Shown: positions 4,994 through 56,960, numbered from the stretch's first letter. The stretch: DNA of 64,000 nt from a virus (IMGVR_UViG_3300048592_000616:9424-73423), one strand, 5' to 3'. The notes: a model not told the origin generated them from the sequence alone. Numbers and translations are program-made.

Positions 4994-7900
4994 TCACTCC
5001 GCGCAGGTGATGACCTGGCGGCGGTTGTCCGGCCGCTGGCCCGGCGCGTGGGCCTCGCTGATCTCGCTGCGCTGGCCGTCGGCCTTCGTCCAGGTCACCA
5101 GCCCGTACATCCGCGAGAAGGTCCACGTCTCCTCGACGCGGCCGTTGGGCAGCAGCCACTGCAAGAGGATGCAGTCCCCAACGAATATCCCATTGACCAT
5201 CATTGCCTTCTGCGCGGCCGCCAGGCGGATCGTTGACGGCTGGCGGCGCTCCTCGGTCGTTTGGCAGTCGGCGATCCGCTGCCAGCGCACGAGCGGGTTA
5301 CGCGGGAACGTCTCCCCCACGGCCATCCGGCGCGGTGCCCAGACGCTGCCATAGACCCCCGGCGCGCCATAGAGCGTGTACATCATCCCGCCGCCCGGCG
5401 ACGTGTCGCGGCCGCGATAGATGGCCTTGTCGTCCGCGCCGAAATGCTCCCACTCGGCCGATAGCTCGTTGCCCTTCGTCAGGTAGTACCAGCCCGGCCG
5501 GTGCGGGTCGCGCTGGGTCTGGTGGCGCGCCTGGCTGCCGCTGCTGTGGCGCACCTCGAAGAGCGGCCCACGGCCGTCCGGGCCGAGCATCCCGGTCATG
5601 TAGGGCAGGAGGTCGATCTTGGTCGGGTCGGGTGGCTGCGGCTCCGGCTTCGGCGGCTGAGGCTTGGGTGGCGTCGGCGTTGGCGTCGGTGGTTTCGGCG
5701 CGGGCAGCGCGTCCTCCGGCCCGACGACGCGGACGGCGTCCCACTCCCCCACCGGCGCGTAGTAGACCAGCGTCTCCCCGGCCCGGCCGCCCGCGCGGCG
5801 GTAGGCATAGCTCACGCCGTCGATGACCTCGCGCTGCTCATCGGAGAGCGGATAGAGACCGTCCTCCAGCATCGCCGCCTGCAAAGCGAAGGTCGGCGTG
5901 TTGGCGATCCCCGGCGCGGCCGTGCCCAGCCGCCACATTGTCTCGGCCAGCGTCGGCGGCCTCGGCTCCGGCACGCCGCGCGGGATGAGGTACGCGGCCA
6001 GGTCGTCCGCCGTGCCGTTGAAGCGGTTCAGGTCGATCCGGGCGCTTGACGCGCCATAGCTCGGCCCGTGGCCGTCGTTGGCGTACTGCCAGAAGGTCCA
6101 GCCCCGGCCGCTGGCCCACGGCTCCGGCACGAGCGGCCGCGTGCCCTTGGTCCAGTTGGCGATCCATAGGTCGAAGGCCGCGCCCCATTTCGGCGCGCCC
6201 AGGGCCGAGCGCCAGTAGCTGTAGTTGGTATAGAGGATCGGCAGCCGGTCGATACCCATCTCGTCGAGGCGTACTTGCAGGCGCTCCAGGAACTCCAACA
6301 CAAACGCCGCCCGCTCGGTCACGGTCAGGCCGTTGAAGTTCCCGTCCTCCAGGTCCAGCACCGGCGGTAGGTCGCAGCCGTGCCGCTCGATGACGGCCGC
6401 GAACGTCTCCACCTGCTCCTTGGGCGGATCGAAGAAGTGCAGGTAGTGGTAGAAGCCATAGGGTAGCCCGGCCGCCATCGCCGCCGGGGCATACTCGTCC
6501 ACCCGCTCGTCCTGGTGCTTGCCATACGACGCGCGGATGAAGGCGAAGTCAACCTTGGCGGCCGCCTTGCCAAAGTCCATCGCCCCCTGCCACTTGGAGA
6601 CGTCGATCCCGATGACCTCGCCGCCCGGCTCCGGCTTCGGCGGTTCGGGCTTCGGCGGTTCCGGCGCGGGCGGTTCGGGTTCGGTGACGGCCGCGCGCAG
6701 GGACCAGCCGTCCAGGAAGAAATTGTTGGAAATGCCCCACTCGGCCGACATGTGGACGGCCAGCTTGAGCGGCCCGCCGCCGTGGGTGAAGGCGGTCGAT
6801 ATCTCGCGGTAGACCGGCCCGGTCGCGGCCGCAGGCCAGATGTCCAGCGGCCCGGCGACGGCCTGGTCGTTGACCTTGAGCGTATAGCGCGCCGAGTTGG
6901 TCTCCACCCGGTAGTCGCGCTTCTTGTCCGTCATGCGGTAGAAGTCCAGCCAGCCGCGCCACGTGAACACGTACCGACCAGCCGGTAGGTCGGGGAACTC
7001 CTGGACCAGGCGCGCCCAGAACGGTCGCCCGCCCGCGAACAGCTTGTAACACCACTGCCCATCGCGGATGAACCGCGCCGCCTCGTCGGCCGGTAGCTGC
7101 GCGGCCGACTTGTGGACGCCCTCCGGCTCGCCATACGCCTGGCCGGAGATCGGCGACTTGCCCGTATTCCAGGCGAAGCGCCAGCCGCGCGGCTGCTGGC
7201 TGGACTGGCTGATGTCGTCCCAGCCGCCCTCAAAGCCGGGGTTGGCGAGTAGCTCGGCCGTGCCCGGCGTGGGTGGCTTCGGCGGGTCCACCGGCGACGG
7301 CGTTGGCGCGTTGTCTTTGATGCGGTCCAGCAGGGCAACCTCGACGGCCGTGCCGGAGATGTCCCACTCCTTCCACACGCCCACGCTCCCCACCGTAAAC
7401 ACGGCCGCGCCGACCACATAGTCATCCTCGCGGATGCGCCGGTCATACCAGGCCAGCATGTCGGCGTACTTCTGTGGGTCCAGACCCATCGCCCGCCATG
7501 ACCCCACCGGCGCGCCCTTCGGCGTCACCGAGGCCACATCGTCACACCCGGCCTCGGTGATGATGAGCTGCGTGTCCCCCAGTCCGGCCGGGGCCAACAC
7601 CGTGTCCCACACGTAGCGATAGCGCAGGGCAGCCCAGCCCCAGGGATAAGAGCGGTCAGGGCGGCCGTGCCACACATCGGCCGTCAGGTTGCCGTTGGCG
7701 TCCACCTGTTTCCAGCCTACCCCATAGTCGGCCTCGTAGCCCATGTACTCGTGGAGGGCGATGTAGTGGCCGTTGTCGCGGGCGTGGCGAACGGCCGGGA
7801 GCAGATGAGGCCAGATGTCCATGCTTGGCGTGCCCACGGCGAAGCTGAAGTTGGCCCGCTTCTTGCCGATGGACTCATACAGCTTCATCATCTCGATGCA

Positions 7901-8278
7901 GTAGGCGCTGTACCAGGCCGCCTCATTCGCGTTGTCCGGGGGTATCTCGTTGTCATCCTCCCACACGTCAATGCGCGGGTTGGCGGTGTAGCGGTTGACC
8001 CGCGGCCGGTTAGCCCCGGCGTAGATGTCGGTCTGCGCCGCGAACCGCACCGCGGCCGCGGCCTTCGGCGTCTCGCCGCGGTGCATCAGCGCCTTCCAGT
8101 CGGTCAACCCCAGGGCGTCGTCCTGCTGGTCCAGCTTGCCGACAACGAGCGGACCGGCCGGGACAGACGATGACGCCCCCAGCCCCATCGGGTCGAACTT
8201 GTAGAGCACCGGCCCGGCCCCGATCCACTTTGCCAGACCGGGCGAACCGATAAAGTGCGGCCCCAGCTTACTTGACAT
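4994..8278 (-). CDS. Multi-domain cell-wall hydrolase/endolysin: N-terminal GH-A-like TIM barrel, carbohydrate-binding-like domain, GH25 muramidase, C-terminal domains
   Basis: GH25 motifs GIDVSKWQG, GFYHY, VLDLE, LWIANW, FWQY, IDLN; N-terminal DNE/ALHEY/ITEAG motifs; Pro-rich linkers; RBS GGAGGA before the ATG at 8278. Confidence 0.8.
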   Translation of the reverse strand: MSSKLGPHFIGSPGLAKWIGAGPVLYKFDPMGLGASSSVPAGPLVVGKLDQQDDALGLTDWKALMHRGETPKAAAAVRFAAQTDIYAGANRPRVNRYTANPRIDVWEDDNEIPPDNANEAAWYSAYCIEMMKLYESIGKKRANFSFAVGTPSMDIWPHLLPAVRHARDNGHYIALHEYMGYEADYGVGWKQVDANGNLTADVWHGRPDRSYPWGWAALRYRYVWDTVLAPAGLGDTQLIITEAGCDDVASVTPKGAPVGSWRAMGLDPQKYADMLAWYDRRIREDDYVVGAAVFTVGSVGVWKEWDISGTAVEVALLDRIKDNAPTPSPVDPPKPPTPGTAELLANPGFEGGWDDISQSSQQPRGWRFAWNTGKSPISGQAYGEPEGVHKSAAQLPADEAARFIRDGQWCYKLFAGGRPFWARLVQEFPDLPAGRYVFTWRGWLDFYRMTDKKRDYRVETNSARYTLKVNDQAVAGPLDIWPAAATGPVYREISTAFTHGGGPLKLAVHMSAEWGISNNFFLDGWSLRAAVTEPEPPAPEPPKPEPPKPEPGGEVIGIDVSKWQGAMDFGKAAAKVDFAFIRASYGKHQDERVDEYAPAAMAAGLPYGFYHYLHFFDPPKEQVETFAAVIERHGCDLPPVLDLEDGNFNGLTVTERAAFVLEFLERLQVRLDEMGIDRLPILYTNYSYWRSALGAPKWGAAFDLWIANWTKGTRPLVPEPWASGRGWTFWQYANDGHGPSYGASSARIDLNRFNGTADDLAAYLIPRGVPEPRPPTLAETMWRLGTAAPGIANTPTFALQAAMLEDGLYPLSDEQREVIDGVSYAYRRAGGRAGETLVYYAPVGEWDAVRVVGPEDALPAPKPPTPTPTPPKPQPPKPEPQPPDPTKIDLLPYMTGMLGPDGRGPLFEVRHSSGSQARHQTQRDPHRPGWYYLTKGNELSAEWEHFGADDKAIYRGRDTSPGGGMMYTLYGAPGVYGSVWAPRRMAVGETFPRNPLVRWQRIADCQTTEERRQPSTIRLAAAQKAMMVNGIFVGDCILLQWLLPNGRVEETWTFSRMYGLVTWTKADGQRSEISEAHAPGQRPDNRRQVITCAE

Positions 8279-8524
8279 GGCATCCTCCCACGGCCGCTGC
8301 GAGGCGGCCACTGTCTCCCCCTGCTCCCGTCGTCAATTCCCGTCTGTCGCTCGAATTCATGACATCCACCTCCGGCCGATATTGTATCACAACGGTTGCG
8401 GATGGTTGCGAAGTCGGCCGGTTGGTTGCGGATTTGGGCAGCGGCCGCCCGGCACATGAACCTTACCTATACGAAGGAACAGACCGCAACCGGCGCGAAC
8501 CGGGAAGTTGATGGTTGCAGTTGG

Positions 8525-8553
8525 TTGACAAGGGGTGCAGGTTATGGTATGAT
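8525..8553 (+). promoter_or_regulatory. Sigma70-type promoter with TATG-N7-CATA operator
   Basis: TTGACA-N17-TATGAT, TG extension. Confidence 0.75.
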
Positions 8554-8597
8554 ACTGTCATACTAAACGACAGGCACCCGCCCTAAAGGAGACCGAG

Positions 8598-8945
8598 ATG
8601 AGCCAGTTTTTCTACACCATAGCTTCCTACCGCAGCGTTGATGAGTTGAGCGGCCGTGAGGCGGCGCAGATCGCCGATGAGAATTGCACCGACTGCCACG
8701 GCGAAGGCCGGTACTACCAGGACGGCGACTGGGTGCCGTGGGGCAACGGCTGGGACAAGACCCCCGATGGCTACTGCATCTGCGGGTGTGTCGCCGAGGC
8801 ATGGGAGACCATGGCCGCGGAACTGAGCGAATTCGAGGACACCTGCGACGATGACGGCCCGTGGTCGCCGCGGATGCTGTACCTGATGGAGCGGTACGGT
8901 GATGAGGAGCAGCAGGCGGCCGCCCGCGCCCTGCTGACCGCGTAG
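8598..8945 (+). CDS. Hypothetical protein with CxxCxGxG Zn-finger motif
   Basis: CTDCHGEG...CICGC; RBS AAGGAG. Confidence 0.6.
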   Translation: MSQFFYTIASYRSVDELSGREAAQIADENCTDCHGEGRYYQDGDWVPWGNGWDKTPDGYCICGCVAEAWETMAAELSEFEDTCDDDGPWSPRMLYLMERYGDEEQQAAARALLTA

Positions 8946-9029
8946 CAGTTTCGGGGCGGCCCCTGCGGACCGCCCCACCCTATCAACCCAGCGGCCGCGG
9001 GCGGCCGCACAACAACAACGGAGGCAACG

Positions 9030-9251
9030 ATGGTTTTCAAGTATTGGTTCGACTTTGTAGTGACCGATGAGAACGGCGAGGAGTACGCCGCCTTGTTCCC
9101 GGTTGACATTGAGGCGTCTTCGGCGACGATGGCCGAGGCCCAGATGGCCGCCCTGTGGCGACATCACCTGTTGCCCGTGCTCCCGTCCGGCCGCGTGGGC
9201 GGCGGCTACTATCGCGAGGGCGAGTTGCCGGAGGGGTTCGAAGATGACTAG
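9030..9251 (+). CDS. Possible HicB-like antitoxin (N-terminal domain only)
   Basis: VVTDENGEEYAALFP...ATMAEAQ resembles the HicB pattern; overlaps the HicA-like gene; RBS ACGGAGG. Confidence 0.35.
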   Translation: MVFKYWFDFVVTDENGEEYAALFPVDIEASSATMAEAQMAALWRHHLLPVLPSGRVGGGYYREGELPEGFEDD

Positions 9252-9498
9252 GGCAACCGAGTGGCGCGAGTGCAAGGACGACCGCGACTGGGTGACCGTC
9301 GCCAAGCGCAAGGGGTACGAGGTCCGGTCGGGCAAGGGATCGCATACGTGCCTGGAGGTTAACGGCCGAAGCATCCCTGTTCCCAAAGGCGAGACGCGCA
9401 AGGGGACCAAGTCGTCTATCCTGCGGTCGCTGGCCGCAGCGGGGGCGATGGTCTTCGCCGGGTTCCTGGTGTTTACGATGCTGGCCACGGTCGCGTGA
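9244..9498 (+). CDS. HicA-like toxin with C-terminal hydrophobic helix
   Basis: KGYEVRSGKGSH...IPVP...KGTKSSIL, then AMVFAGFLVFTMLATVA. Confidence 0.65.
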   Translation: MTRATEWRECKDDRDWVTVAKRKGYEVRSGKGSHTCLEVNGRSIPVPKGETRKGTKSSILRSLAAAGAMVFAGFLVFTMLATVA

Positions 9499-9512
9499 CC
9501 GAGGCATGAGAG

Positions 9513-9538
9513 AAGCCGCTCCAACGAGCGGCTTTTTT
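9513..9538 (+). terminator. Intrinsic terminator
   Basis: AAGCCGCTC-caac-GAGCGGCTT-TTTT. Confidence 0.85.
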
Positions 9539-9549
9539 GTTGGCCGTTA

Positions 9550-9579
9550 TTGACAGTTGTTAAGGCGTGCCGTTATAAT
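9550..9579 (+). promoter_or_regulatory. Consensus sigma70 promoter
   Basis: TTGACA-N18-TATAAT. Confidence 0.75.
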
Positions 9580-9628
9580 TCCAAGTGGGTGTGGTGTAAG
9601 CGGCCGCCCGGCCGCGGAGGGTAGAGAA

Positions 9629-9832
9629 TTGGATAACGACGCAGCAGACGACGTAGACGACGGCCGTATGGTGACGGTCAGCATTTCGGTGGATCAGTCG
9701 CTGGTGGACGCTCTGGACGACGAGAAGCGCCGCCAGGACCGTTCGCGCTCGTGGATCGTGCGTCAGGCCATCGCGCAGTATCTCGAGAAGCAACAGAGCC
9801 GCCGAGCGCCGGAGGGTCCGCGCCATGCGTAA
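9629..9832 (+). CDS. CopG-like ribbon-helix-helix regulator
   Basis: VTVSISVDQSLVDALD...RSRSWIVRQAIAQYL; TTG start after GGAGG (alternative ATG at 9668). Confidence 0.8.
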   Translation: MDNDAADDVDDGRMVTVSISVDQSLVDALDDEKRRQDRSRSWIVRQAIAQYLEKQQSRRAPEGPRHA

Positions 9833-10205
9833 GGACGGCACGCTCCTACTGGTCTTGTTGGCCCTGGCGCTGGCCGGGCTGGGGATGATGAGCTTCTCGG
9901 CCCGCGGCGCGGCGCAGGACAGCTACACCTACGAGTCGCTCCCCAAGTCCGGCTACCAGATGGTCATAACCTCGCGCACGACCGCGGCGGCCGATGACGG
10001 CGGCGGTCGCCTGTTGCTGTTGGGCGTGGGGCTGATGGCGTCGGTCGTCGTGTTTCTCGGCGGCTCGCTGTTGGCGATGAACGGCGGGGCGAAGGTCTTG
10101 AAGGAGTTTCGGCTGACGCGCCGCGCCCAGCGCCGGTCGTCCCGCGCCCCGGCCGCGCCCGGTCGCCTGCCCGCCCTGCCGTCGCTGTACGAGGACACAC
10201 CATGA
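9825..10205 (+). CDS. Membrane protein (signal peptide plus TM helix)
   Basis: Two hydrophobic segments; overlaps both neighbours. Confidence 0.65.
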   Translation: MRKDGTLLLVLLALALAGLGMMSFSARGAAQDSYTYESLPKSGYQMVITSRTTAAADDGGGRLLLLGVGLMASVVVFLGGSLLAMNGGAKVLKEFRLTRRAQRRSSRAPAAPGRLPALPSLYEDTP

Positions 10206-11827
10206 CGCGCAGCCGCCTCCTCGCGCTACTGACGTTGTTGGCGCTGTTGGGCGTCGGCTGCGGCGGCGCGGCGACAACCACTCCCGGCCAACAGCCGCCG
10301 ATGGTCTTCTACTCCGACCAGGCGGCCGTCGATGCCCAGGCGACGCTGGCGGTCTACGCTTTCCAGGTGACGGCCGTCGCCCAGGCCACCCAGGAGGCCC
10401 AGCAGCGGGCCGTGGAGGCGACCAGGGCTGTCCAGCAGGCAACGGCCGACGCGCAGGCCATCGCGGCCCAACAAGCCACCGCCCAGGCCGTCCAGGCCAC
10501 GTCTACGGCGCAGTCTATGGCGATGGTCGCCACGGCGACGGCCGATGCGCTGTCGGCGCAGGCCACGGTGCAGGCGCTGACCATCGACGCCACGCGACAG
10601 TCGGCGGCCATCGTGGCCACGGCGTCGGCCGAGCAGCGCGCCGCCGATGCCGAGCAGCAGCTGGTGGCGGCCGAGATGGCGCGCCTCCAGGTCGAGCAGC
10701 AGGCCCGGCAGGCGGCCGTTGAGCGGGCGCGCATGCTGAACCAGATGTTGCCCTGGGGCATTGCGGCGACGGTGCTGGCGATGCTGGCCGTCGTGGGCGC
10801 GGTGCTGTGGCGGATCATCACCCAGGCCCGGCCGCAGCAGGCGGGCGATATGTGGCTGGCCTATGTGGACGGACGCCCGCACGTCATCGACGTCACGCCG
10901 TCGGCCGGGCGGCTGAGTTCGCCCCGCCCGCAGCTCCCGGCGACGACGGGGACCGACAACGACGCCGAGGCGGTGCCGCTGCTGCGGCCGTCGCGCGGTC
11001 ATGCCATGTTCGCCGGGCCGACGGGATCGGGCAAGTCCACGGCCATGCGCTACTTCCTGGAGCCGCGGCCGCACGTGGTCGTCATCGACCCGCACAGTAT
11101 GCCCGGCGACTGGCCCGGCGCGACGGTGATCGGCGCGGGCCGGAACTTCGACCAGATACAGGGCTACATGCAGTCGATGCAGTCGCTGCTGGCCGACCGC
11201 TATGAGCAACGCGCCGAGGGCGTGCGCGACTTTGAGAGTATCACCGTCGCCGTGGACGAGATGCCCGCCATCGTGGCCGCGCTCGGCCGGTCCATCGAGG
11301 ACATGTGGAAGGAGTGGCTGCGCGAGGGGCGCAAGGTGGGCCTGGACCTGCTCATCTCCACCCAGTCCCTGCGCGTCAAGACGCTGGGCATTGAGGGCGA
11401 GGGCGACCTGCGCGAAAATTTCGCGCTTGTGCTGGCCCTGGGGCAGACGGCGCTACGCGAGTTCCCGGCCCAGGCCCAGGGGATGCGCTGGCCCGCCGTG
11501 ATGTACACCCCGCAAAGCGGCCCGCGCCCGGTCATCATCCCGCAAATGCCGGAGACGGCCGTCTCGGTCGCCAACGGTAACGGCCACACCCGCCCGCCCG
11601 TCCGCGAGTGGCCGGTGATCTTGCCCGCCCCGACCAACGACCCCAACAACGTCACGCCGGAAATGCGTCGGCAGATCGTCCGGCTGGGCCAGATGGGCCA
11701 CTCCATCTCGGCCATCCAGCGCGCCGTCTTCCCGACCTACTCCAGCAGCGGCGGCCATGCCTTTGCCCGCATCAAGGACATCCTGCAGGCCGAAGGCGTT
11801 CTGGAGCCGTCCTCGTCGGCCGACTGA
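10202..11827 (+). CDS. Membrane-anchored FtsK/HerA-superfamily P-loop ATPase
   Basis: Lipobox-like LGVGC, Ala/Gln/Thr coiled coil, TM helix, Walker A GPTGSGKS, Walker B VAVDE, REGRK Arg finger, STQ motif, C-terminal HTH-like segment. Confidence 0.8.
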   Translation: MTRSRLLALLTLLALLGVGCGGAATTTPGQQPPMVFYSDQAAVDAQATLAVYAFQVTAVAQATQEAQQRAVEATRAVQQATADAQAIAAQQATAQAVQATSTAQSMAMVATATADALSAQATVQALTIDATRQSAAIVATASAEQRAADAEQQLVAAEMARLQVEQQARQAAVERARMLNQMLPWGIAATVLAMLAVVGAVLWRIITQARPQQAGDMWLAYVDGRPHVIDVTPSAGRLSSPRPQLPATTGTDNDAEAVPLLRPSRGHAMFAGPTGSGKSTAMRYFLEPRPHVVVIDPHSMPGDWPGATVIGAGRNFDQIQGYMQSMQSLLADRYEQRAEGVRDFESITVAVDEMPAIVAALGRSIEDMWKEWLREGRKVGLDLLISTQSLRVKTLGIEGEGDLRENFALVLALGQTALREFPAQAQGMRWPAVMYTPQSGPRPVIIPQMPETAVSVANGNGHTRPPVREWPVILPAPTNDPNNVTPEMRRQIVRLGQMGHSISAIQRAVFPTYSSSGGHAFARIKDILQAEGVLEPSSSAD

Positions 11828-11931
11828 CCTTATTTCTCGGCCAGGGGGTTGACCTGACGGCTGAACTACTGTAGTATGCTTATATCGTACTGATAGCAAG
11901 GCGAGACAAACGACACAGGAGAACAACACCT

Positions 11932-12273
11932 ATGAGTAGCTATTACACCCGCGCCACGAAGCGCGGACGCGGCACCGGGCCGACGGCCCGAACGACGATC
12001 AGCGGCGACGCGGCAGACTTCCTCTTCCTGCTGCTTTACAGCCGCGGGCTAAACAGCGTGTCCGGCGGCGTGCAGCTCGTCATGGACGACCTGCTGCAGG
12101 GCAACGCGGACGCGCAGCGATACTATGACGCCGCCGAGGCCATGGTCGCCAACGCGGTCGAGATGTGGGCGGCCGAGAACGGCGGCGAGGAACCGGACCG
12201 CAGCCAGCTGTGGCGCTTCATCTCCGACAACCTGGATCGGGTGATGACGTCGGTCAAGGAGACGGCCGACTGA
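11932..12273 (+). CDS. Hypothetical protein
   Basis: RBS AGGAG; upstream promoter TTGACC...TATGCT. Confidence 0.6.
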   Translation: MSSYYTRATKRGRGTGPTARTTISGDAADFLFLLLYSRGLNSVSGGVQLVMDDLLQGNADAQRYYDAAEAMVANAVEMWAAENGGEEPDRSQLWRFISDNLDRVMTSVKETAD

Positions 12274-12369
12274 CCCCGACTCCCACCCCGACTCAAGTCC
12301 GACCCGACCCCGACCCCGACTCCGACTGGCCCGACCCCGGCCAACGGCCGTCGGGGTCGGGGTCTTTTT
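12273..12369 (+). repeat. Degenerate CCGAC/ACCCCG hexamer repeats ending in an inverted repeat and T-tract
   Basis: accccgac tcccaccccgac tcaagtccgacccgaccccgaccccgactccgac...ccgacccc...gtcggggtcggggtc ttttt. Confidence 0.75.
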
Positions 12370-12383
12370 GTTATAGCAGCCCA

Positions 12384-12412
12384 TTGACACGCCAAGTTTG
12401 CCCTGCTACCAT
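12384..12412 (+). promoter_or_regulatory. parA promoter
   Basis: TTGACA-N17-TACCAT with TG extension; downstream ACAATGTGT direct repeat (12444-12463) is a candidate operator. Confidence 0.65.
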
Positions 12413-12495
12413 AAGACTGAACTCACGTGCGCCCACTGTGCGCACAATGTGTATACAATGTGTGTGTGCACTCACTACCAAGACGGAGGCAACAA

Positions 12496-13305
12496 GTGAA
12501 GGTTAAGATCATTGCAGTGACCAATAACAAAGGTGGCGTCGGTAAATCGACGACGGCCGGGAATGTCGCGGCTGCTCTCTCCGAGCGGGGGCCGACGCTC
12601 ATCGTCGATCTTGATCCGCAGGGCAACATGAGTGACTTCTTCGGGGTCAGGGATCGCGTTGGGGATCGGTGCGTCAGCCGGTTACTGTTGGGACAGGCAA
12701 CATTGCGGGAAAGCGTTGTCTCGCTGGATCGGCCGGAGGATGGACTAAACCGGCCGCGCCTGTTTCTGCTACCGGCTAGTGCGGACCTGGAGGAGGCCGG
12801 TGAGTCGTTGATCCTCGCGGACTATCAGGCCGCGCGACGCCCCGGCAGTAGAGCGGTCCCGCTAAAGAACTGTCTGAGCCACTGGTTGGCATCGGCCACG
12901 GACGTTTTTCAGTACATCGTCATTGACTGCCCGCCGAAGCTCGACGTGTTGAAAGCGGCCGTTTACCACTTCGCCCAAGCGTTGGTGGTTCCTACCAAGC
13001 CTGACCATTTGAGCATGGTTGGCGTCCGGCAACACACCGAGGACCTGGAGCGTTATCGCGCCGATGGAGCCACGGCTCGTCTTCGCTACATCTTGCCGAC
13101 GATGGTTCAGCCGCGGCAAGTCATGGACCGGCAGATGCTGATCGAGTTGATCTCGGTCTACGGTCGGGATCGCATTGCCGCCCCTATCCCCCTGGCCGTC
13201 GCCGTCAAGGAGAGCAGCGGCAGCGGTGGACGCACGATATTCGAGTATCAACCGGATCACGCAGCCGCCAAGGCGTATAAGCACCTGGCCGGGAGACTTG
13301 CCTGA
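12496..13305 (+). CDS. parA: ParA/Soj-family partition ATPase
   Basis: NNKGGVGKST, DLDPQGN, VIDCPP; RBS ACGGAGG before GTG at 12496. Confidence 0.92.
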   Translation: MKVKIIAVTNNKGGVGKSTTAGNVAAALSERGPTLIVDLDPQGNMSDFFGVRDRVGDRCVSRLLLGQATLRESVVSLDRPEDGLNRPRLFLLPASADLEEAGESLILADYQAARRPGSRAVPLKNCLSHWLASATDVFQYIVIDCPPKLDVLKAAVYHFAQALVVPTKPDHLSMVGVRQHTEDLERYRADGATARLRYILPTMVQPRQVMDRQMLIELISVYGRDRIAAPIPLAVAVKESSGSGGRTIFEYQPDHAAAKAYKHLAGRLA

Positions 13306-13619
13306 TGGATAACCTCTTAGACCAACTCGATAACACCAAGCCAACATCTAGGCAGTTTGACAAGACCGTCTCGACAGCCAGCGCCACGGCCGTAAAAGCG
13401 GCCGTCGGCAGCAAAGGTGCCACCGAAAAGCGAAAGACGATCTATCTCGCCCCGGAGGTGCAGGAATACATCCAGCAAACGGCTGACGATCTGGGCATTG
13501 GCGTGATGGCTTGCTATCGCTTTCTTTTGGTTCTCGGCCTTGAGGCTGTCCAGAATGGGCGGCGGCCGGAAGTGGTATCCGTCTCTTCTCGACTGACGAC
13601 CGACGACTGGCGGCCGTAG
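13305..13619 (+). CDS. Putative ParA partner (ParG-like RHH centromere-binding protein)
   Basis: Coupled to parA; flexible N-terminus then RKTIYLAPEV beta-alpha-alpha pattern. Confidence 0.5.
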   Translation: MDNLLDQLDNTKPTSRQFDKTVSTASATAVKAAVGSKGATEKRKTIYLAPEVQEYIQQTADDLGIGVMACYRFLLVLGLEAVQNGRRPEVVSVSSRLTTDDWRP

Positions 13620-13625
13620 ACAAGC

Positions 13626-13653
13626 AAAAGGGCCACCTCGCGGTGGCCCTTTT
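13626..13653. terminator. Intrinsic terminator
   Basis: AAAAGGGCCACC-tcgc-GGTGGCCCTTTT. Confidence 0.85.
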
Positions 13654-13907
13654 GGTGGGGCCGGGCGACCCCACTATACCAACGAACGAACCTTTAGCCG
13701 ACGGAGGCAGAAGATTCAGGACCACTATACCAGACATCCCCCACCCCCGCCAACCGCATATCATGAGTGCCGCATGAGTTAAACATTAGCGGCGGGTTAT
13801 TTTCTGCTATCATGCGGGTCAACGACGATCACACGCTGGAACTTTGTGAAACCGATGGCAACCGAACGGAGGGAAACCGATTTGGACAACAAAGGTGAAA
13901 GTAAGTT

Positions 13908-14126
13908 ATGGGCCTACAAGGAGTTTCGGTCCCGACGCAACAGCGTGGCCAGTTAGGGGCGAACTGTCGGGAGGCATGTTGTTTGGAGACGCTCCAAACG
14001 ATCTTGACCGCGAGGGAGTTAACGGGGCTGATCGAGCGCCGGGAAAAGACCGCCCAGCTGCAGGCGGCGGTCCTGGCTGCAAGGGAACGTTTATCGGACG
14101 AGTTTGAGAAGTATCGTTTGAACTGA
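13908..14126 (+). CDS. Hypothetical protein
   Basis: ORF with RBS-like AAGGTG; helical composition. Confidence 0.4.
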   Translation: MGLQGVSVPTQQRGQLGANCREACCLETLQTILTARELTGLIERREKTAQLQAAVLAARERLSDEFEKYRLN

Positions 14127-14178
14127 GCCGGGGCGGGAGGGAAGCCCACCTTGGCGACAGTGAAAGCAGGGGGTATCA

Positions 14179-14883
14179 ATGAAGGTTCTGATCGTGGACT
14201 CCAACGCGGAGTTCGCAAAGATGGTGGCGGCCGGATTACAGATGTTCGGCCACACGGCCGACGTGGCCCTGACCGCCGATGAAGCACTGACGCACTTAGC
14301 CTCCCTCGAATATTCAATGGTCGTCGTCGGCCTCCCATCGGCCGCCGCGTTTCTCCGCAAGGCCAAGCAGGTCGATGTCACGTTGTCGGCCGTTGTGTTG
14401 GGCCTGTCGCCCAGCGTGGCCGACGTGGTCGAGGTCCTGCGCGGCGGACCCAACGCCCTGGCCATCGACTACATCGTCAAGCCCGAGCCGCACCTGATCC
14501 GGCGCGTGGCTGAGGACATCGACGCCTACTTCACGCGGCTCCATGTGGGCGAGCTGATGGTAGACCGGAAGCTGCGGCGCGCGTACTGGGCCGGGGAAGA
14601 GCTGCAACTGTCGCCGGTCGAGCACGCCATCCTGACCACCTTCGCGATGAAGCCCTGGCAGGACATCACCTACGAGGAGCTGGCGCAGGCCGTTTACGAG
14701 AAGCCCGTCGCCCACGGCCGGGCCATGCGGATGTTGCGCGCGCCGCTTTCCCGGCTCCGCACCAAGCTCTCGGCTGCGGCCGGGCGGGATGTCATCATCT
14801 ACGGCTACAACGACGGCAACCGCTTGATCCCGTCATCGCCGCTGTACAAGACGGCGACGGCCGTCACCGACCCAGCCCCTTAA
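14179..14883 (+). CDS. OmpR/PhoB-family regulator with degenerate receiver domain
   Basis: MKVLIVD...DYIVKP receiver, then winged-helix domain (LSPVE..IL...ITYEEL...RLRTKL). Confidence 0.85.
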   Translation: MKVLIVDSNAEFAKMVAAGLQMFGHTADVALTADEALTHLASLEYSMVVVGLPSAAAFLRKAKQVDVTLSAVVLGLSPSVADVVEVLRGGPNALAIDYIVKPEPHLIRRVAEDIDAYFTRLHVGELMVDRKLRRAYWAGEELQLSPVEHAILTTFAMKPWQDITYEELAQAVYEKPVAHGRAMRMLRAPLSRLRTKLSAAAGRDVIIYGYNDGNRLIPSSPLYKTATAVTDPAP

Positions 14884-28361: not shown

Positions 28362-28988
28362 ATGGGTGGCGGCGACATGGTCAGCGGCGCGCCCGCGGCC
28401 GTCAACGGCGGCCTCATTGTCGGCCGGGAGCTGCGCGAGTTGGTCATGGAGGCCATCGACCTGGCGATACCCACTCAGAAGCGGACCAACAACGTGCCCT
28501 CGTGGGGGCTGGGACCGGCCGGGTACGACGTGCGGTTGCGGCAGTTGATGGTGCGGCAGTTCGCCCTCGCCGACCCCGGCGAGGCGGCCGATCCGCAGCT
28601 CATCGACCCGATGGACGACAGCCAGGGACCGTACATCTCGCTGCCCATCGGCGTCGCCAAAGACGGCCGCGACTACGTGATCATCAGCCCCCGCGCGGCC
28701 GTGTATGCCGAGACGGTCGAGGCGTTCGACATCCCCGACGACGTGCTCGTCCTGCCGGTCGGCAAGTCCACCTACACCCGGCACGGGCTGGCGCTGCTGG
28801 CGACGCCGTTTGAACCGGGCTGGCGCGGCTGGCCGCGGGTGACACTGGTCAACACCACCGACCGGCCGATCAAGTATTACCTCGGCGGCGGCGGGATGCA
28901 GTGTCTGTTCTTCCGCGTCCCCGGCGCGACGGCCTACGACGGCCGTTATCAGGATCAGCAACCGACCCAGGATGGCCGAAGCGCGTAA
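28362..28988 (+). CDS. dcd: dCTP deaminase
   Basis: SWGL..AGYDVRL, ETVE.FDIPDDV, GKSTYTRHGL, TPFEPGWRG, Y.GRYQ. Confidence 0.85.
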   Translation: MGGGDMVSGAPAAVNGGLIVGRELRELVMEAIDLAIPTQKRTNNVPSWGLGPAGYDVRLRQLMVRQFALADPGEAADPQLIDPMDDSQGPYISLPIGVAKDGRDYVIISPRAAVYAETVEAFDIPDDVLVLPVGKSTYTRHGLALLATPFEPGWRGWPRVTLVNTTDRPIKYYLGGGGMQCLFFRVPGATAYDGRYQDQQPTQDGRSA

Positions 28989-31752
28989 CTTGCTGGACCC
29001 CGCGGCGTGGAAGGATCGAGCGGCCTACGACCGCTGGATGGCCGAGGCGCGCGCCGATGCCGCGGCGTTGAAGTCCACCGGCTGGCGACCGGCGGCCGAC
29101 AACTGGCGCAAGCGCATCCCGGCCATCTTCGCGCCGTATCTGTGGCACCCGTTCTCCGATCCCCACATCGAGCTGTGGGACTGGGCGGCGGCCGTTGAGC
29201 GCGACACGTCCCCGCGGCCGTTCGTGGCCATCTGGCCACGGGGTAGGGGCAAGTGCCTGGACGGAGATACTCCGATACAAATGGCCGACGGGCAGCGAGT
29301 CCCCATCCGGGACGTCCAGGTGGGAGATCGCGTCGTATCATGGGACGCGGCCGCGGGAGACTTTGCGCCACGGCCCGTCACCCGGAAATGGGATAGCGGC
29401 AGCAAGCCATGCATTCGCGTGAAAACGACGACGCGCGAGATTACGCTTACTCCGGCGCATCGAGTGCTTACTTTCAACGGATGGAAAACGGCCGGGGAGC
29501 TTGAGCCCGGGGATCGCATTGCCTCACCAAGGAGGATACCGCTTGAGCGGGCGGCGGCGCGACCGATTGAGGAAGCCAAGCTGCTGGCCTATATGATCGC
29601 CGAGGGTGGCTGCGGGCCAAATGCCGGCACTCCACTTTTTACAAATTTTGACGAGCCGGTCGTGGAAGACTCTAAGCGATGCGCGGCGGCCGTTGGGCTT
29701 ACCGTGAACGACAGGGCGCGACAGGGGCATTACAGCCTGACGAATGGTGGTTTGCAATGGACGAAAGATCAAGGGATCGCGGGACATCTGGCATTGACGA
29801 AGCGCGTCCCTCAGTGGGTATTCGGGCAGCCGGAAGCGCATCGCTGGGCCTTCTTATCGGCCATGATGGATACCGATGGCTGGTTCTCCTGTGACCGTGG
29901 CGGGATTACCCTCGCTAACGAGGGACTTATTGATGACCTGCGGACGATATTTCTATCGGTCGGCATTTACGGGAACGTTATATTTAAGAAGAACGACTTC
30001 GCCAGCGCGTGGCAGTTTGAGATGGATCAGGAGTGCCTGTCGCTTGCCCTTCACAAAATGGTGATGATAAACAAGACCGGTCGGTTGAGGGAGGTGCTCA
30101 AAACCAATCGCTATAGCTTGATCGATACATACCCCAAAGAGATACTCCGAAACTTACCGAAGGGGATGAATCGCGCGTTGCGAAATAAGTATGGGCTGCG
30201 GGCGACGACGTCGTACGCCGTAACGCGGCCGAAACTGCGGCGGGCCATCAAAGCCTTCCCTCTTGATCGGTGGGTTCAACTTGAGAGCCAGCCTATATTT
30301 TGGGACGCGGTCTCGTCAATCGAGGAGGCCGGAACCCGGCCGACTTATGATATCGAGGTGGCCGGTACTCACAACATGATCAGCGGCGGGCTGATCACTC
30401 ATAACAGCACGGCGGCCGAAATGGTCACGGTGGACTGGGGTGGCCGGGGGGCGCGACGGTACATCCTATACTGCAGCGAGACGCAGGACCAGGCCGACAA
30501 ACACATCGCCACCATCCAGCGCATGCTCGAGCGCGAGGCGGCCGAAGCGTACCCCAACTCCGTCGGGCGGCCGCGCATCGGCAAGCACGGCAGCAAGACG
30601 TGGCGGCGCGAGGTGATGACCACAGTCTCAGGGTTCACGGTCGAGGCCATCGGTCTCGACAAAGCCGTTCGGGGACAGAAGATCGACTGGGCGCGACCGG
30701 ACGGGATCATCCTCGACGACGTGGACGCCCGGCACGACACCGAGAACGCCGTCCGCAAGAAGATCGAGACGATCACCGGCAGCATCCTCCCGGCCGGTGC
30801 GTCCAACTGCGCGGTGCTGTTCGTGCAGAACCTCATTCATGAGAACAGCATCGCCCACATGCTCAGCAAGCGGCCGGGCACGCCCGGCGCGGCCGACTTT
30901 TTGGCCAACCGCATCATCAGCGGCCCCCACCCGGCGATGGAAGGGTTGCAGTACGAGTACCAGGCCGACGCCGAGGAAGGGCGGCACTGGGTGATCACGG
31001 CCGGTCGCTCGCTGTGGCGCGGGTTCGATGTGGCCGTGTGCCAGGAGGAGATCAACCGCGCCGGGCCGACATCGTTTGAGTTGGAGAGCCAGCACGAGGT
31101 CGATACGGCCGATCCGCAGGCGCTGCTGACGCCGGAGCAGCTCGACGCGACGCGGGTGTTCACCCAGCCCGACCTGGCGCGCATCGTCATCGGCGTGGAC
31201 CCATCGGGCGGCACCGGCCAAGTCGGCATCGTCGGAGTGGGAACGGCCGTGCTGGGCAAGGTGACGCACGGGTACACCGTCGCCGACAACTCGACTCCGG
31301 CGGGGACGGGATCGGCCGAGTGGGCGGCGGCCGTGTTGCGGCTGTACTACGCCCTCGGGGCCGACGCCGTCGTCGTCGAGACGAACTTCGGCGGCGACAT
31401 GGCGGCCGAGAACATCCGCGCCGTCCGGTTGACCGGGCCGGACGGGGAGCTGCTCGTGGATGGGAAAGACGTGGCTATCGTCCAGGTGTGGGCCAGCCGG
31501 GGCAAGGAAGTCCGGGCGCAACCCGTGGCCACGCTGTTCCAGCTCGGCAAGGCCCACCACGTCGGCCACTACCCGGAGCTGCAGAAACAGTGGACGCGCT
31601 GGGTGCCGGGGACCAAGCCCAGCCCGGACCGGATGGACGCCGAGGTGTGGGGGTATACGTACCTCATGCTGGGCGAAGGGATCAAGGGGAGCGGCGAACG
31701 GCCGACGGCCAGCAAGGGGCGCGTCGTCAGGGCCGAAGACCTGTTTGGGTAA
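28972..31752 (+). CDS. terL: Terminase large subunit containing an intein
   Basis: PRGRGK/S Walker A, RPDGIILDD Walker B, RNase H-like nuclease IGVDPS, VETNFGG, SPDRMDA. Confidence 0.92.
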   Translation: MAEARNLLDPAAWKDRAAYDRWMAEARADAAALKSTGWRPAADNWRKRIPAIFAPYLWHPFSDPHIELWDWAAAVERDTSPRPFVAIWPRGRGKCLDGDTPIQMADGQRVPIRDVQVGDRVVSWDAAAGDFAPRPVTRKWDSGSKPCIRVKTTTREITLTPAHRVLTFNGWKTAGELEPGDRIASPRRIPLERAAARPIEEAKLLAYMIAEGGCGPNAGTPLFTNFDEPVVEDSKRCAAAVGLTVNDRARQGHYSLTNGGLQWTKDQGIAGHLALTKRVPQWVFGQPEAHRWAFLSAMMDTDGWFSCDRGGITLANEGLIDDLRTIFLSVGIYGNVIFKKNDFASAWQFEMDQECLSLALHKMVMINKTGRLREVLKTNRYSLIDTYPKEILRNLPKGMNRALRNKYGLRATTSYAVTRPKLRRAIKAFPLDRWVQLESQPIFWDAVSSIEEAGTRPTYDIEVAGTHNMISGGLITHNSTAAEMVTVDWGGRGARRYILYCSETQDQADKHIATIQRMLEREAAEAYPNSVGRPRIGKHGSKTWRREVMTTVSGFTVEAIGLDKAVRGQKIDWARPDGIILDDVDARHDTENAVRKKIETITGSILPAGASNCAVLFVQNLIHENSIAHMLSKRPGTPGAADFLANRIISGPHPAMEGLQYEYQADAEEGRHWVITAGRSLWRGFDVAVCQEEINRAGPTSFELESQHEVDTADPQALLTPEQLDATRVFTQPDLARIVIGVDPSGGTGQVGIVGVGTAVLGKVTHGYTVADNSTPAGTGSAEWAAAVLRLYYALGADAVVVETNFGGDMAAENIRAVRLTGPDGELLVDGKDVAIVQVWASRGKEVRAQPVATLFQLGKAHHVGHYPELQKQWTRWVPGTKPSPDRMDAEVWGYTYLMLGEGIKGSGERPTASKGRVVRAEDLFG
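29254..30405 (+). mobile_element. Intein (384 aa) with LAGLIDADG homing endonuclease
   Basis: Starts CLDGDT, block B TPAHR, LAYMIAEG and FLSAMMDTDG motifs, ends YDIEV...THN followed by Ser; lower GC. Confidence 0.93.
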
Positions 31753-37526: not shown

Positions 37527-37937
37527 ATGCAATATGTGACCGTAACCAACCCGACCGATGGCCTGCTGATGCTGGCCGGGGCGTATCTGTTCCCCGGCGA
37601 GTCGCGGGCGGTGCATCCGGCGCTGGCCGCGCAGGCCCTCGCCGACAGCCCCGCCCTGGTCATCGTGGACGCGGAACCATCTCTGGCTGGGGAGCCGGAA
37701 GACACTGACGGCGACAAGACGGCCGATGACAAGACGACCGACGACGAGACGGCCGACGACGAGACGGCCGACGACGAGACGGCCGACGACGAGACGGCCG
37801 ACGAGAACGCGCCGGAGTTGACGGCGCTGGCGTCGCTGTCGAAGGCGGAGCTGGTCGTGCTGGCCGAGGAAAAGGGTCTCGAGGTCGGCCGGGCCACGAA
37901 GTCGGAGATCATCGAACTGATCGAAGCGGCCGAGTAA
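37527..37937 (+). CDS. Head-associated protein with acidic repeats and C-terminal HeH/Rho-N-like motif
   Basis: DETAD repeats; LSKAELVVLAEEKGL...TKSEII. Confidence 0.65.
   Translation: MQYVTVTNPTDGLLMLAGAYLFPGESRAVHPALAAQALADSPALVIVDAEPSLAGEPEDTDGDKTADDKTTDDETADDETADDETADDETADENAPELTALASLSKAELVVLAEEKGLEVGRATKSEIIELIEAAE
37713..37802 (+). repeat. 15-bp coding tandem repeat (6 units)
   Basis: GACGAGACGGCCGAC x4 exact plus 2 degenerate units. Confidence 0.9.
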
Positions 37938-56043: not shown

Positions 56044-56331
56044 GTGCACACTATCCAGCGCATTACCGACATCATCCAAGCCATTGACCTGGTCGCCTTC
56101 ACGGCGGCGCTGCTGCTGGCGGCCGGGATCAGTTGGCGCTGGCCGCGCTGGCGCTGGCCGCTGCTGCCGGTGATGTTCTACGCCTTGAACGGAACCATCT
56201 TCTACATGGTCGTCGTTCTGGAGCTAACCAACTTCCGCACGCTGTGGTCGGCCGCCCTGCGGTTGCAGGGCATCCTCTCCATCCTGACCGCGCTGATCGT
56301 CCTGGCGTGGAGGCTCCGCCGCTCCTCATGA
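56044..56331 (+). CDS. Three-TM membrane protein (holin-like)
   Basis: Three hydrophobic segments; RBS GGAGG. Confidence 0.55.
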   Translation: MHTIQRITDIIQAIDLVAFTAALLLAAGISWRWPRWRWPLLPVMFYALNGTIFYMVVVLELTNFRTLWSAALRLQGILSILTALIVLAWRLRRSS

Positions 56332-56960
56332 CCACCGCCGACTGGTTGCAACTGGCCGTGTTCGCCGTCGTCCTCGTGGCGGCCGTCATCATCGCCGCGC
56401 GGACGGTGCTGGTCGTCATCGGCAGGGAGACGGACCGCGACAAAAACTTCGAGGACAAGCTCCAGGACATCCGCGAGCGGGCGGCGACGATGTACGCCAA
56501 CATGGAGGCGGCGCACAGCAGCGCCCTGCGCCGCATGGACGACCTGGAGGACGAAGTGTCCCGCCTGCGCGAGGAGAACGCCCGGCTCCAGGCCGAGGTG
56601 GACAGCTACCGGCAGATCATCGCCGTCGTGAACGGCCGTGTCCAGGCGCTGGAGCTAGGGGCGTCGATCCTGACGCAGCAACTCAAGCGGCACAGCCTCG
56701 ACCCGGAGTGGGCACCGGAGGACGCGGTGATGGTGCCGGTCCCCGTCCGTCCCCAGGAGTTGGCCGACCGTATCCGGCGCGCCTTCAATGTGGAGGAGAT
56801 GAACGACCTGGCGACGAGGCTGGAGATCGACCCGGAGGACATCGCCGAGCGCACGGCGACCGGCCGGGCGCGGGCGCTGGTCGGCGCGGCCGAGCGGCGC
56901 GGCAAGTTGGGGTTGCTCATCGAGACGGCCAAGGAACTGCGACCGAAAGGCAATTGGTAA
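56328..56960 (+). CDS. TM + coiled-coil protein with C-terminal effector-associated (EAD7/death-like) domain
   Basis: AFNVEEMNDLA..LEIDPEDI...TGRARALV...ERRGKL..L....ELRP..W. Confidence 0.65.
   Translation: MTTADWLQLAVFAVVLVAAVIIAARTVLVVIGRETDRDKNFEDKLQDIRERAATMYANMEAAHSSALRRMDDLEDEVSRLREENARLQAEVDSYRQIIAVVNGRVQALELGASILTQQLKRHSLDPEWAPEDAVMVPVPVRPQELADRIRRAFNVEEMNDLATRLEIDPEDIAERTATGRARALVGAAERRGKLGLLIETAKELRPKGNW

Follow-up and report, generated by a model that had tools for sequence, protein, structure and literature searches.

The operon described here lies at positions 9550-11827 of a 64,000-nucleotide (nt) stretch of viral DNA (IMGVR_UViG_3300048592_000616:9424-73423; hereafter 'the window'). 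The source record is an IMG/VR virus of 73,423 bases, classed as linear and with a completeness estimate of 72%, of which the window represents bases 9424-73423. Positions are counted from the first nucleotide of the window, and features lie on the + strand unless stated otherwise. The last gene of the operon encodes a lipobox-anchored, membrane-spanning ATPase of 541 amino acids (aa) with an FtsK-type fold, P0001. The new observation is that this gene and the gene for a small transmembrane (TM) protein that precedes it form a conserved cassette, and that cognate short repeats nearly always follow the pair. By analogy with TraB and its cis-acting clt site in Streptomyces plasmids, and from sequence, the operon may encode a sequence-directed pump that moves the element as double-stranded DNA (dsDNA) between the cells of a filament; we give this reading nearly an even chance. 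The likeness to TraB/clt, an analogy, is one of way of working and not of membership of the TraB family.

Architecture of the ATPase

P0001 is encoded at 10202-11827 and was characterised by alignment, an AlphaFold2 (AF2) model and structure searches. It opens with a signal peptide and lipobox (10202-10261), seen as a hydrophobic segment at residues 4-27 and an L-x-A/G-C-G motif whose cysteine, Cys20, is invariant in 51/51 aligned homologues. An Ala/Gln/Thr-rich helical region follows (residues 41-184; 10322-10753; Ala 33%, Gln 17%, Thr 10%), which from its composition and the AF2 model is predicted to be extracytoplasmic, and then a TM helix (residues ~185-208; 10754-10825) that is supported by a hydrophobic segment at residues 181-209 and by the model. 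The RecA-like FtsK-type ATPase core (residues 255-452, or 253-452 in the model; 10964-11557) was delimited using invariant columns, Foldseek and VIA-align. The C-terminal three-helix, helix-turn-helix (HTH)-like domain (residues 486-530; 11657-11791) is taken from the AF2 model, and the start of its third helix covaries with the repeat motif, as set out below. Also invariant across the 51-homologue alignment are Walker A Gly277-Lys278, Walker B Asp352-Glu353 and a series of residues in the motor, and the architecture as a whole is kept in all 51 proteins. The AF2 model has a mean predicted local distance difference test score (pLDDT) of 77.8, rising above 90 in the RecA-like core, with long helices at residues 41-116 and 121-208, the second of which contains the TM helix; a low-confidence break at residues 112-127 separates the two long external helices. 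Sequence and model together suggest that P0001 is anchored in the cytoplasmic membrane by an N-terminal lipid-modified cysteine and one TM helix, with ~145 residues outside and the ATPase and three-helix domain inside. The order of parts given in a preliminary description of this DNA (lipobox, Ala/Gln/Thr helices, TM helix, ATPase and small C-terminal domain) was thus borne out.

Foldseek returned the FtsK motor 6t8g (E 2.5e-8), TcpA 6o1x (7e-7) and EssC/EccC as the top matches of P0001. Using VIA-align, the best scores were found for TcpA (Z 16.7; 190 aa, root mean square deviation (rmsd) 2.8), FtsK 6t8b (Z 15.4) and EccC/EssC (Z ~14.5), with lower scores for HerA (Z 13.4), the packaging ATPase of Sulfolobus turreted icosahedral virus (13.2) and VirB4/TrwK (11.6). 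As modelled, the motor is a minimal FtsK-type RecA-like core. The preliminary description had raised the case of a structure that places the ATPase outside the DNA translocases; the structure search gave it an FtsK-type fold, with the FtsK motor at E 2.5e-8. Its label of FtsK/HerA ATPase stands as regards fold and falls short at the level of families, where P0001 does not match Pfam FtsK_SpoIIIE at E<=0.01. The FtsK assignment therefore rests on fold and on homologues: at the same threshold, 45 of the 51 homologues match FtsK_SpoIIIE (weakly, best E 1.3e-7) and 35 match DUF87/HerA. No NCBIfam family was found for P0001, its PHROG match is phrog_2666 (E 1.7e-8), and phmmer against PDB sequences gave low-complexity matches to the Ala-rich region only.

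The protein has many relatives. At E<=1e-3 it is matched by 117 other proteins, mostly of 500-570 aa, the closest being P0002 (86% identity), P0003 (72%) and P0004 (65%), and an exhaustive search of 50%-identity representatives gave 303 matches at E<=1e-30 and 1,681 at E<=1e-10. Two relatives carry the NCBI label 'type IV secretory system conjugative DNA transfer family protein'. A tblastn search of 50,697 deposited phage records with P0001 gave no match at E<=1e-3.

The C-terminal domain, when modelled alone, forms a three-helix bundle (pLDDT 75) in which no wing is seen. Its best matches, none of them significant, were HTH domains, namely those of Sin resolvase (Z 5.0, rmsd 1.6, 42 residues), of the transposases Tc3 and IstA, of NarL and of sigma region 4, and Pfam FtsK_gamma was matched neither by P0001 nor by any of the 51 homologues. 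The domain is called HTH-like here, and not a gamma domain.

The operon and its membrane partner

The operon is preceded by a sigma-70-type promoter (TTGACA-18 nt-TATAAT, 9550-9579) that matches the consensus at 12/12 positions. A promoter scan of 8400-14300 found five promoter-like sites, vs 1.0 +/- 1.0 in shuffles, and from the sequence the upstream gene appears to end in a terminator-like hairpin and T run at ~9505-9535, just before the promoter. The first gene (9668-9832) encodes a ribbon-helix-helix (RHH) regulator of CopG type (RHH_1 E 3.1e-13; PHROG repressor families, E 4e-5 to 9e-3). Its start is probably ATG 9668, giving a protein of 54 aa, because the mechanically called start at 9557 (open reading frame (ORF) 9557-9832) falls inside the promoter. 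The second gene (9825-10205) encodes a membrane protein of 126 aa with two hydrophobic segments (residues 3-27 and 59-92), followed by a basic stretch and a Pro-rich tail. The RHH and TM-protein genes overlap by 8 nt, and the TM-protein and ATPase genes overlap in ATGA. The promoter, the overlapping three-gene unit, the RHH regulator and the membrane protein had all been recognised in the preliminary description and are confirmed here.

The 126-aa protein shares 24-35% identity with ORFs of 143-153 aa directly upstream of the ATPase gene in 5/6 loci compared; the corresponding ORF of L013 (related loci are given our own L numbers) is unlike it (16%). Since it resembles two-TM ORFs in five of the six, the TM protein and the ATPase are regarded as a conserved unit. 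Further viral contigs carry this cassette too, as do small integrative elements of Chloroflexota metagenome-assembled genomes (MAGs).

Repeats that follow the ATPase gene

DNA past the ATPase stop codon was read in 32 loci, many of which are close relatives of one another and in all of which the gene calls are our own longest-ORF picks. In nearly all of them a cluster of short repeats starts at the stop or within ~70 nt of it. The units are 5-9 bp long, and in the CCGAC and CCTAC classes several direct copies are followed by two or three inverted ones. Most chromosomal elements carry the motif GTAGTAG/GCTAC. A separate class, in L016, L038 and L039, has GCTAC-N6-GTAGC units at least six times. 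The motif GTCCTACC is found in L003, L031 and L040, and GTCCGACT in L004 and L036; the window was scored with the CCGAC/GTCGG of this last class. Other classes are GAAGCA (L027 and L033), GGTAAC (L006 and L013) and AGTATTG (L005).

A supervised cluster test was applied to 21 of the 32 loci; the other 11 were L041, L005 (the only member of its class) and near-duplicates of loci in the test. In 19/21 the densest 120-nt motif cluster of the whole locus lay at -67 to +132 nt from the ATPase stop, and these clusters held 4-14 sites, vs 1-5 elsewhere. L010 gave a tie, its other cluster lying at the 3' end of a second ATPase copy. An unsupervised test that counted the commonest exact 6-mer (both strands, 200-nt windows) placed the region past the ATPase in the top 5% of its locus in 17/32 loci, one of which, L028, scored through a ParA-associated motif. 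Chromosomal elements carry the repeats and no ParA gene. The co-occurrence of repeats and ATPase in related elements, proposed as a check in the preliminary description, was therefore found, including in chromosomal elements that lack ParA.

In the window itself, about 8-9 direct copies of CCGAC(C/T) lie at 12272-12327 (Tandem Repeats Finder (TRF) period 6/12, 9.7/4.8 copies, score 56), and one further direct copy together with inverted copies (GTCGGGGTCGGGGTC) makes up a strong intrinsic terminator at 12330-12364, with a 12-bp stem (12330-12361) followed by a T run. The segment 12241-12360 contains 12 CCGAC/GTCGG sites, vs at most five in any other 120-nt stretch of the 64 kb. These repeats begin 445 nt past the end of the ATPase gene, the densest 120-nt cluster lying at +414 from the stop. 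The intervening DNA holds a 113-aa ORF of coding-like composition (11932-12273; GC content at third codon positions (GC3) 0.89) with a promoter-like site of its own (TTGACC, 17 nt, TAGTAT; 11849-11877; 9/12 matches). The 113-aa protein has no Pfam or PHROG family and no credible alignment to the ORFs downstream of the ATPase in other loci. The window cluster is read as the same kind of element as in the relatives, displaced by 445 nt because the 113-aa ORF has been inserted. The cluster reported earlier at ~450 bp downstream is thus real in position and density, with the amendments that an ORF intervenes and that its 3' end is a terminator.

The comparison of closely related proteins points to a possible reader of the repeats. 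L003 and L004 share 85% identity in their last 300 aa, with an identical motor stretch, and differ at the C-terminal helix, which is GGRAFYVIR in L003, with GTCCTACC repeats, and GGQAGQVIR in L004, with GTCCGACT repeats. L036, which is just 60% identical to L003, has the helix and motif of L004, and L031 (74%) and L040 (51%) have those of L003. In these sequences the motif thus appears to vary with the opening residues of the last C-terminal helix and not with overall relatedness, a pattern that comes from few lineages and is not proof. Because the motif follows the helix rather than overall relatedness, the ATPase's own C-terminal helix is the best candidate for the reader.

Other roles and readers were considered for the repeats. 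That the CCGAC repeats are the centromere of ParA, or are read by the ParA partner, was rejected, given that their equivalents follow the ATPase in loci without ParA and that ParA has repeats of its own. A role as terminator only holds for window positions 12330-12364 and was rejected as a full account, as most related arrays have no T run. The upstream regulator is unlikely to read the repeats, since its family changes (RHH in the window, HTH_17 elsewhere) and the repeats stay; the same applies to the DUF2637 protein with a winged HTH that is described below, which is not in the window or L004.

Distribution and gene context

Pattern scans found relatives in four viral contigs, at 47 metagenome loci and at 18 loci in species-representative genomes. 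Ten of these 18 were long matches in Chloroflexota MAGs (Ardenticatenaceae, Anaerolineae, Anaerolinea, Ca. Trichofilum aggregatum and Chloroflexia), seven were shorter, motor-only matches in cyanobacterial genomes or MAGs (Phormidium, Myxacorys, FACHB-63 and T3Sed10_344R1), and one was in a Patescibacteria MAG. We take these Chloroflexota and the named cyanobacterial genera to be filamentous. A sample of 401 genomes from the phylum of genome G001 gave 10 matches at E<=1e-20, full-length in G001 alone, so the cassette is uncommon; the sample says little on whether it is confined to filamentous hosts. Genome G005 carries two ATPase copies 8 kb apart.

At chromosomal loci (L007-L015; for example L008 3596-11645) the ATPase gene lies within a conserved block of ~8 kb. 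The order is a DUF3854 protein of 566-777 aa, an HTH_17 protein of the excisionase type, a membrane protein of 250-330 aa ending in a winged HTH, a two-TM protein of 145-153 aa whose gene overlaps the beginning of the next, the ATPase and a large serine recombinase, with a 152-aa ORF between ATPase and recombinase at some loci. The 250-330-aa membrane protein of L011 matches DUF2637. In L008 a DUF2637 gene of the same build stands downstream of the recombinase and, together with a second recombinase start, lies at 12171-13445; in L011 and L012 host genes come next after the block. DUF3854 proteins have been identified as the CyRepA plasmid replication proteins of cyanobacteria (PMC10079941). 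The actinomycete integrative and conjugative elements (AICEs) of Actinomycetales are defined by a Rep protein, an Xis-like protein, a recombinase, one FtsK-like ATPase and small membrane proteins (PMC3429521). L008, L011 and L012 hold a DUF3854 Rep-like protein, HTH_17, the ATPase and a large serine recombinase within ~8 kb, as in an AICE-like element.

A tblastn search of plasmids gave distant relatives that keep the motor motifs, encoded by small replicons of Nostoc, Tolypothrix, Calothrix, Moorena and Pseudanabaena. They include proteins of 377-436 aa on pDU1 (6.4 kb; NC_008440.1 1557-2690), pCC7120zeta (5.6 kb; NC_003241.1 2957-4129) and pPg_01 (5614-6924). The pDU1 and pCC7120zeta proteins also keep the C-terminal G-Y-x-G-G helix and have neither lipobox nor external helices. 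A CopG-type RHH gene is also present on pCC7120zeta, and pDU1 is the replicon of Anabaena shuttle vectors. On pPg_01 the ATPase gene is followed by ParA and a ParB_N-like gene, with a DUF3854 protein nearby.

Against Streptomyces plasmids the best tblastn match of P0001 was a 695-aa ORF (E 1e-3, 27.5% identity over residues 206-429), which is itself weakly FtsK_SpoIIIE (E 1e-3). This ORF, on a Streptomyces microflavus plasmid (L076, NZ_CP109321.1 1-6326), lies in a run of small hypothetical genes, ~2.9 kb downstream of the DUF2637 protein that opens the run. FtsK-like ATPases are therefore accompanied by DUF2637 on a Streptomyces plasmid as well as in Chloroflexota elements.

Proposed mechanism and competing explanations

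If the operon is a TraB/clt-like transfer system, the C-terminal domain would bind the repeats, in the window the CCGAC copies at 12272-12364, and the ATPase ring would load there on the element's dsDNA and drive it through septum or envelope to the adjoining cell of the filament. The external helices and the small TM partner might form or hold the conduit and help to span the wall, and the RHH protein would keep the operon repressed. In the phage, a plasmid prophage maintained by ParA could in this way spread, or be kept, along the filament with no need of virions. The ATPase cassette would provide for transfer of the ~8-kb Rep/Xis/serine-recombinase elements in Chloroflexota, the part that TraB and clt play for Streptomyces plasmids and AICEs.

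Several observations weigh against this proposal. TcpA, a coupling protein for single-stranded DNA (ssDNA), matches P0001 structurally as well as FtsK does. In Pfam, P0001 has a weak AAA_22 match only (E 8.6e-4), and it has no sequence match to solved FtsK beyond the P-loop, a profile search of the PDB matching only around that loop. The gap between the TM helix and the ATPase core is only ~45 residues (209-254; VIA alignments begin at residue 252-255), so P0001 lacks the alpha domain of FtsK. None of the fold matches of the C-terminal domain is significant (Foldseek best E 1.3; VIA best Z 5.1, to transposase/resolvase HTHs), and the FtsK gamma domain 2ve8 aligns to it with Z 3.9 and rmsd 3.2 over 52 residues. 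As regards the repeats, the motif classes for the supervised test were picked by eye; a mismatch-tolerant 7-mer test did not separate the region past the ATPase from GC-rich coding background; L041 has no repeats past the ATPase, and L010, L026 and L035 have only short clusters; and no repeat cluster follows the gene in 3/3 distant cyanobacterial plasmid relatives (pDU1, pCC7120zeta and pPg_01). The repeats of the window sit 445 nt off, behind the inserted ORF, and their 3' part is a terminator. The ATPase gene is near ParA in the window, L003, L004, L025, L028 and pPg_01, which fits a maintenance role equally well. Upstream of the Rep gene there is a weak VirD4-like ORF in L007 (T4SS-DNA_transf E 1.3e-7) and a NikA-like RHH protein in L008 (E 2.6e-6).

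Proximity to ParA favours the main rival, in which the ATPase, a private pump for segregation at the septum, cooperates with ParA: it loads on the repeats and clears or pushes copies through closing septa, so that each cell of the filament would keep a copy of the plasmid prophage or excised element and element-free cells would receive none. The data suit segregation beside ParA almost as well as transfer. The evidence of fold, anchor and repeats is the same for both, ParA comes directly after the gene or no more than ~1.5 kb from it in the loci just named (L025 being paired here with L037), and the direct-then-inverted layout resembles polar loading sites that converge on one point, as do the FtsK orienting polar sequences (KOPS). 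We nevertheless consider a purely segregational role unlikely. The cassette is equally conserved in integrated elements that lack ParA and replicate with the chromosome, where such a pump would have little to do before excision, and an open septum calls for neither long external helices nor a lipid anchor. A role in ssDNA conjugation, with P0001 as a TcpA-like coupling protein serving a pore encoded elsewhere and the repeats as a region akin to an origin of transfer (oriT) bound by RHH proteins, draws on TcpA of pCW3 as the top VIA match (Z 16.7), on the conjugative DNA transfer name that NCBI gives to two relatives, on the NikA-like and VirD4-like ORFs of L008 and L007, and on the RHH gene that opens the window operon. 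The VirD4/TraG-like ORF (L007 10-1581) and the NikA-like ORF (L008 3124-3450) may be a mobilisation module within the same element; an ORF of 495-523 aa without a family is situated between them. A scan of 18 ORFs in the 15 kb that precede the L007 and L008 elements gave no other type IV secretion system (T4SS) family. In the 73-kb phage record (estimated to be 72% complete) no AAA_10 (VirB4-like) protein, PF03432 relaxase or DUF2637 protein was found, a search for which two relaxase/VirB4 profiles were tried and which atypical relaxases could escape. The repeat motif moreover covaries with the ATPase helix, which would be unexpected were an RHH protein the reader, and the regulators upstream differ among loci (RHH, HTH_17) whilst the repeats stay. 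On this evidence the coupling-protein explanation is distinctly improbable.

A membrane function in superinfection exclusion or defence, or of another kind, in which the ATPase blocks or expels DNA or exports protein and the repeats are a terminator or operator only, would fit a weak PADLOC match to mad8 (P0001 E 1e-6; L008 protein 7e-10), the presence of HerA-type defence ATPases among the fold matches (Z 12-13) and the terminator within the window's repeat cluster. FtsK-like genes without known function have also been reported from Streptomyces phages (bioRxiv 10.1101/2024.02.16.580700, PMC13587820). No other MADS or HerA-partner genes were seen beside the ATPase, the repeat arrays of most related loci have no T run, and a lineage-specific cis site that covaries with the protein is left unexplained, all of which makes this account very improbable. 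Its specific form, a MADS/HerA defence system, was set aside because the mad8 match is weak and partner genes were not found.

The dsDNA-transfer reading can be extended to the cassette as a whole. The TM protein, ATPase and 3' repeats would then be an unrecognised single-protein dsDNA transfer system, an analogue of TraB/clt of separate descent that is common to tailed phages, ~8-kb integrative elements and, in shortened form, small plasmids (pDU1, pCC7120zeta) of multicellular filamentous Chloroflexota and cyanobacteria, and that would allow a prophage to spread along a filament without virions. This wider proposal is tentative, and its truth in full is doubtful.

Comparison with known systems

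TraB binds clt, which has direct 8-bp repeats, is hexameric, has Spd membrane proteins from translationally coupled operons as partners and is controlled by a repressor (PMC4447253). Its mechanism has been regarded as an adaptation to hyphal growth, and AICEs are reported almost only from Actinomycetales (PMC3429521); TraB homologues are reported from Actinobacteria only and TcpA homologues from Firmicutes only (PMC3548315). P0001 resembles TraB in being a lone FtsK-like ATPase, associated with the membrane, with a C-terminal part for DNA recognition (predicted in P0001), and in having element-specific short repeats beside the gene, small membrane proteins in coupled genes and a small repressor upstream (putative in the window). 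Both are also found on small Rep/Int/Xis carrier elements of filamentous hosts, with DUF2637 proteins nearby. Unlike TraB, P0001 has a lipobox, an external helical part of ~145 aa, one TM helix, a bare RecA-like core and a three-helix HTH without wing, and its family differs in having repeats of 5-9 bp that are direct and then inverted, in its Chloroflexota hosts and in its presence in a tailed phage. The sequence similarity between the two is barely detectable (E 1e-3). The 'TraB-like' transfer module of the preliminary description is therefore partly supported, by the FtsK fold, by repeats that travel with the ATPase and by covariation of the two; its kinship with TraB is weak in sequence (E 1e-3), and it has no alpha domain.

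FtsK and SpoIIIE share with P0001 the core fold and the order of membrane anchor, motor and small C-terminal DNA-binding domain (predicted in P0001), and in P0001, too, loading may be steered by a short oriented motif. P0001 differs from them in having no alpha domain, no four-TM domain and no Pfam FtsK_gamma match, and in being element-borne, with repeats clustered beside the gene and not spread over the replicon as are KOPS and the SpoIIIE recognition sequences (SRS) read by gamma. TcpA of pCW3 is the best structural match (190 residues) and likewise has an N-terminal membrane anchor and lies on a mobile element. Unlike P0001, it keeps the company of a VirB4-type pore and a relaxase, neither of which was found in the phage record with the limited profiles used, and we know of no cognate repeat array of TcpA that is read by its own C-terminus. 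TcpA acts with a VirB4-type pore and an atypical relaxase (PMC3548315).

TdtA is encoded by ICEth1 of Thermus thermophilus, a small integrative element from outside Actinobacteria. It forms a hexamer at the membrane and pushes DNA; this FtsK/HerA-like donor ATPase acts alongside a NurA-like nuclease and a restriction enzyme in promoting generalised transfer (PMC5365140). Compared by description only, TdtA and P0001 are both ATPases of DNA-pump type (proposed for P0001) on mobile elements outside Actinobacteria; unlike P0001, TdtA has no cognate cis repeats or lipoprotein anchor described in the abstract (PMC5365140). The FtsK-like genes of Streptomyces tailed phages, which that literature lists without function (bioRxiv 10.1101/2024.02.16.580700, PMC13587820), resemble the P0001 gene in being FtsK-like ATPase genes of tailed phages with a filamentous host, a candidate host in the case of P0001. 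A literature search, without supplements, found no description of such a system in Chloroflexota or cyanobacteria.

Partition genes and other features of the window

The terminator that closes the repeat region is followed by a ParA promoter (TTGACA, 17 nt, TACCAT; 12384-12412; 10/12 matches) and, between this and the start codon, by 11-nt repeats of GTGCRCA type (12427-12475; period 11, 3.3 copies), which from their sequence and place are likely to be the operator or centromere of the ParA partner. Repeats of GTGCACA type also lie between the ParA promoter and start codon in L025/L037 and L028, and L003 and L004 have other ParA-proximal repeats. The ParA-type partition ATPase (12496-13305; AAA_31 E 9.7e-31, phrog_164 E 3e-41) has its likely start at GTG 12496, after GGAGG. 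Its 104-aa partner (13305-13619) has no Pfam family and shares 27% identity (E 2e-7) with L003:5494-5829, which also follows ParA; it may be ParG-like, judging by position and by an RHH-like pattern recognised by eye. GC3 is 0.72 for ParA and 0.68 for the partner vs 0.80-0.92 for the RHH, TM-protein, ATPase and 113-aa genes, and the partition genes and the ATPase operon may thus be of different origin. Between the ATPase repeats and ParA, the place taken in the window by the 113-aa ORF, L004 (7480-8349) and L003 (3445-4290) carry an ORF of 281-289 aa. That of L004 is of antirepressor type (P22_AR_N E 4.6e-23, ORF6C), with an N-terminal sequence common to the L003 ORF, and the spot seems to be an insertion point for cargo. 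Downstream of ParA the window encodes an OmpR-type response-regulator-like protein (14179-14883; Trans_reg_C E 5e-6, phrog_731 E 5e-19). At the equivalent position L003 (7743-8435) has an ORF whose N-terminus, judged by eye, is response-regulator-like, and the region of ATPase, ParA and regulator appears to be syntenic between the window phage and L003.

The remainder of the window carries the gene set of a tailed phage, with a DnaB helicase, two DNA methyltransferases, a large terminase, a protease/capsid region, a tape-measure protein and tail proteins. No integrase was found among the phage ORFs scanned, and the ParA gene with its small conserved partner suggests a prophage of plasmid type. 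The candidate host is probably a filamentous member of the Chloroflexota. The terminase is 926 aa long (28972-31752), its terminase match being confined to residues 492-903 and its N-terminal half giving a weak helicase-like hit. An endolysin-like protein of 1105 aa (4994-8311, - strand), a size exceptional for endolysins, has a central GH25 domain (E 4e-27), long flanks and Pro-rich linkers. There is also an RtcB-type RNA ligase at 21-1070 (phrog_1075 E 1e-104) and a protein with Effector-associated domain 7 at 56133-56960 (EAD7, E 5e-12). The top tandem array of the window is a 15-nt unit at 37712-37804 (6.2 copies, 93% matches, TRF score 158).

Biological significance

Conjugation of dsDNA by a single FtsK-like protein has hitherto been treated as a peculiarity of mycelial Actinobacteria. 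The prediction that the C-terminal helix reads the repeats is directly testable, because protein-motif pairs that lie four residues apart exist (L003 vs L004), and the distant relatives on pDU1 and pCC7120zeta offer a genetically tractable filamentous host (Nostoc/Anabaena). If the transfer reading is true, a cassette of this kind in filamentous Chloroflexota would point to a wider origin or spread of such gene flow, wherever cells stay joined, and a tailed phage would gain a second, virion-free way for its genome to move.

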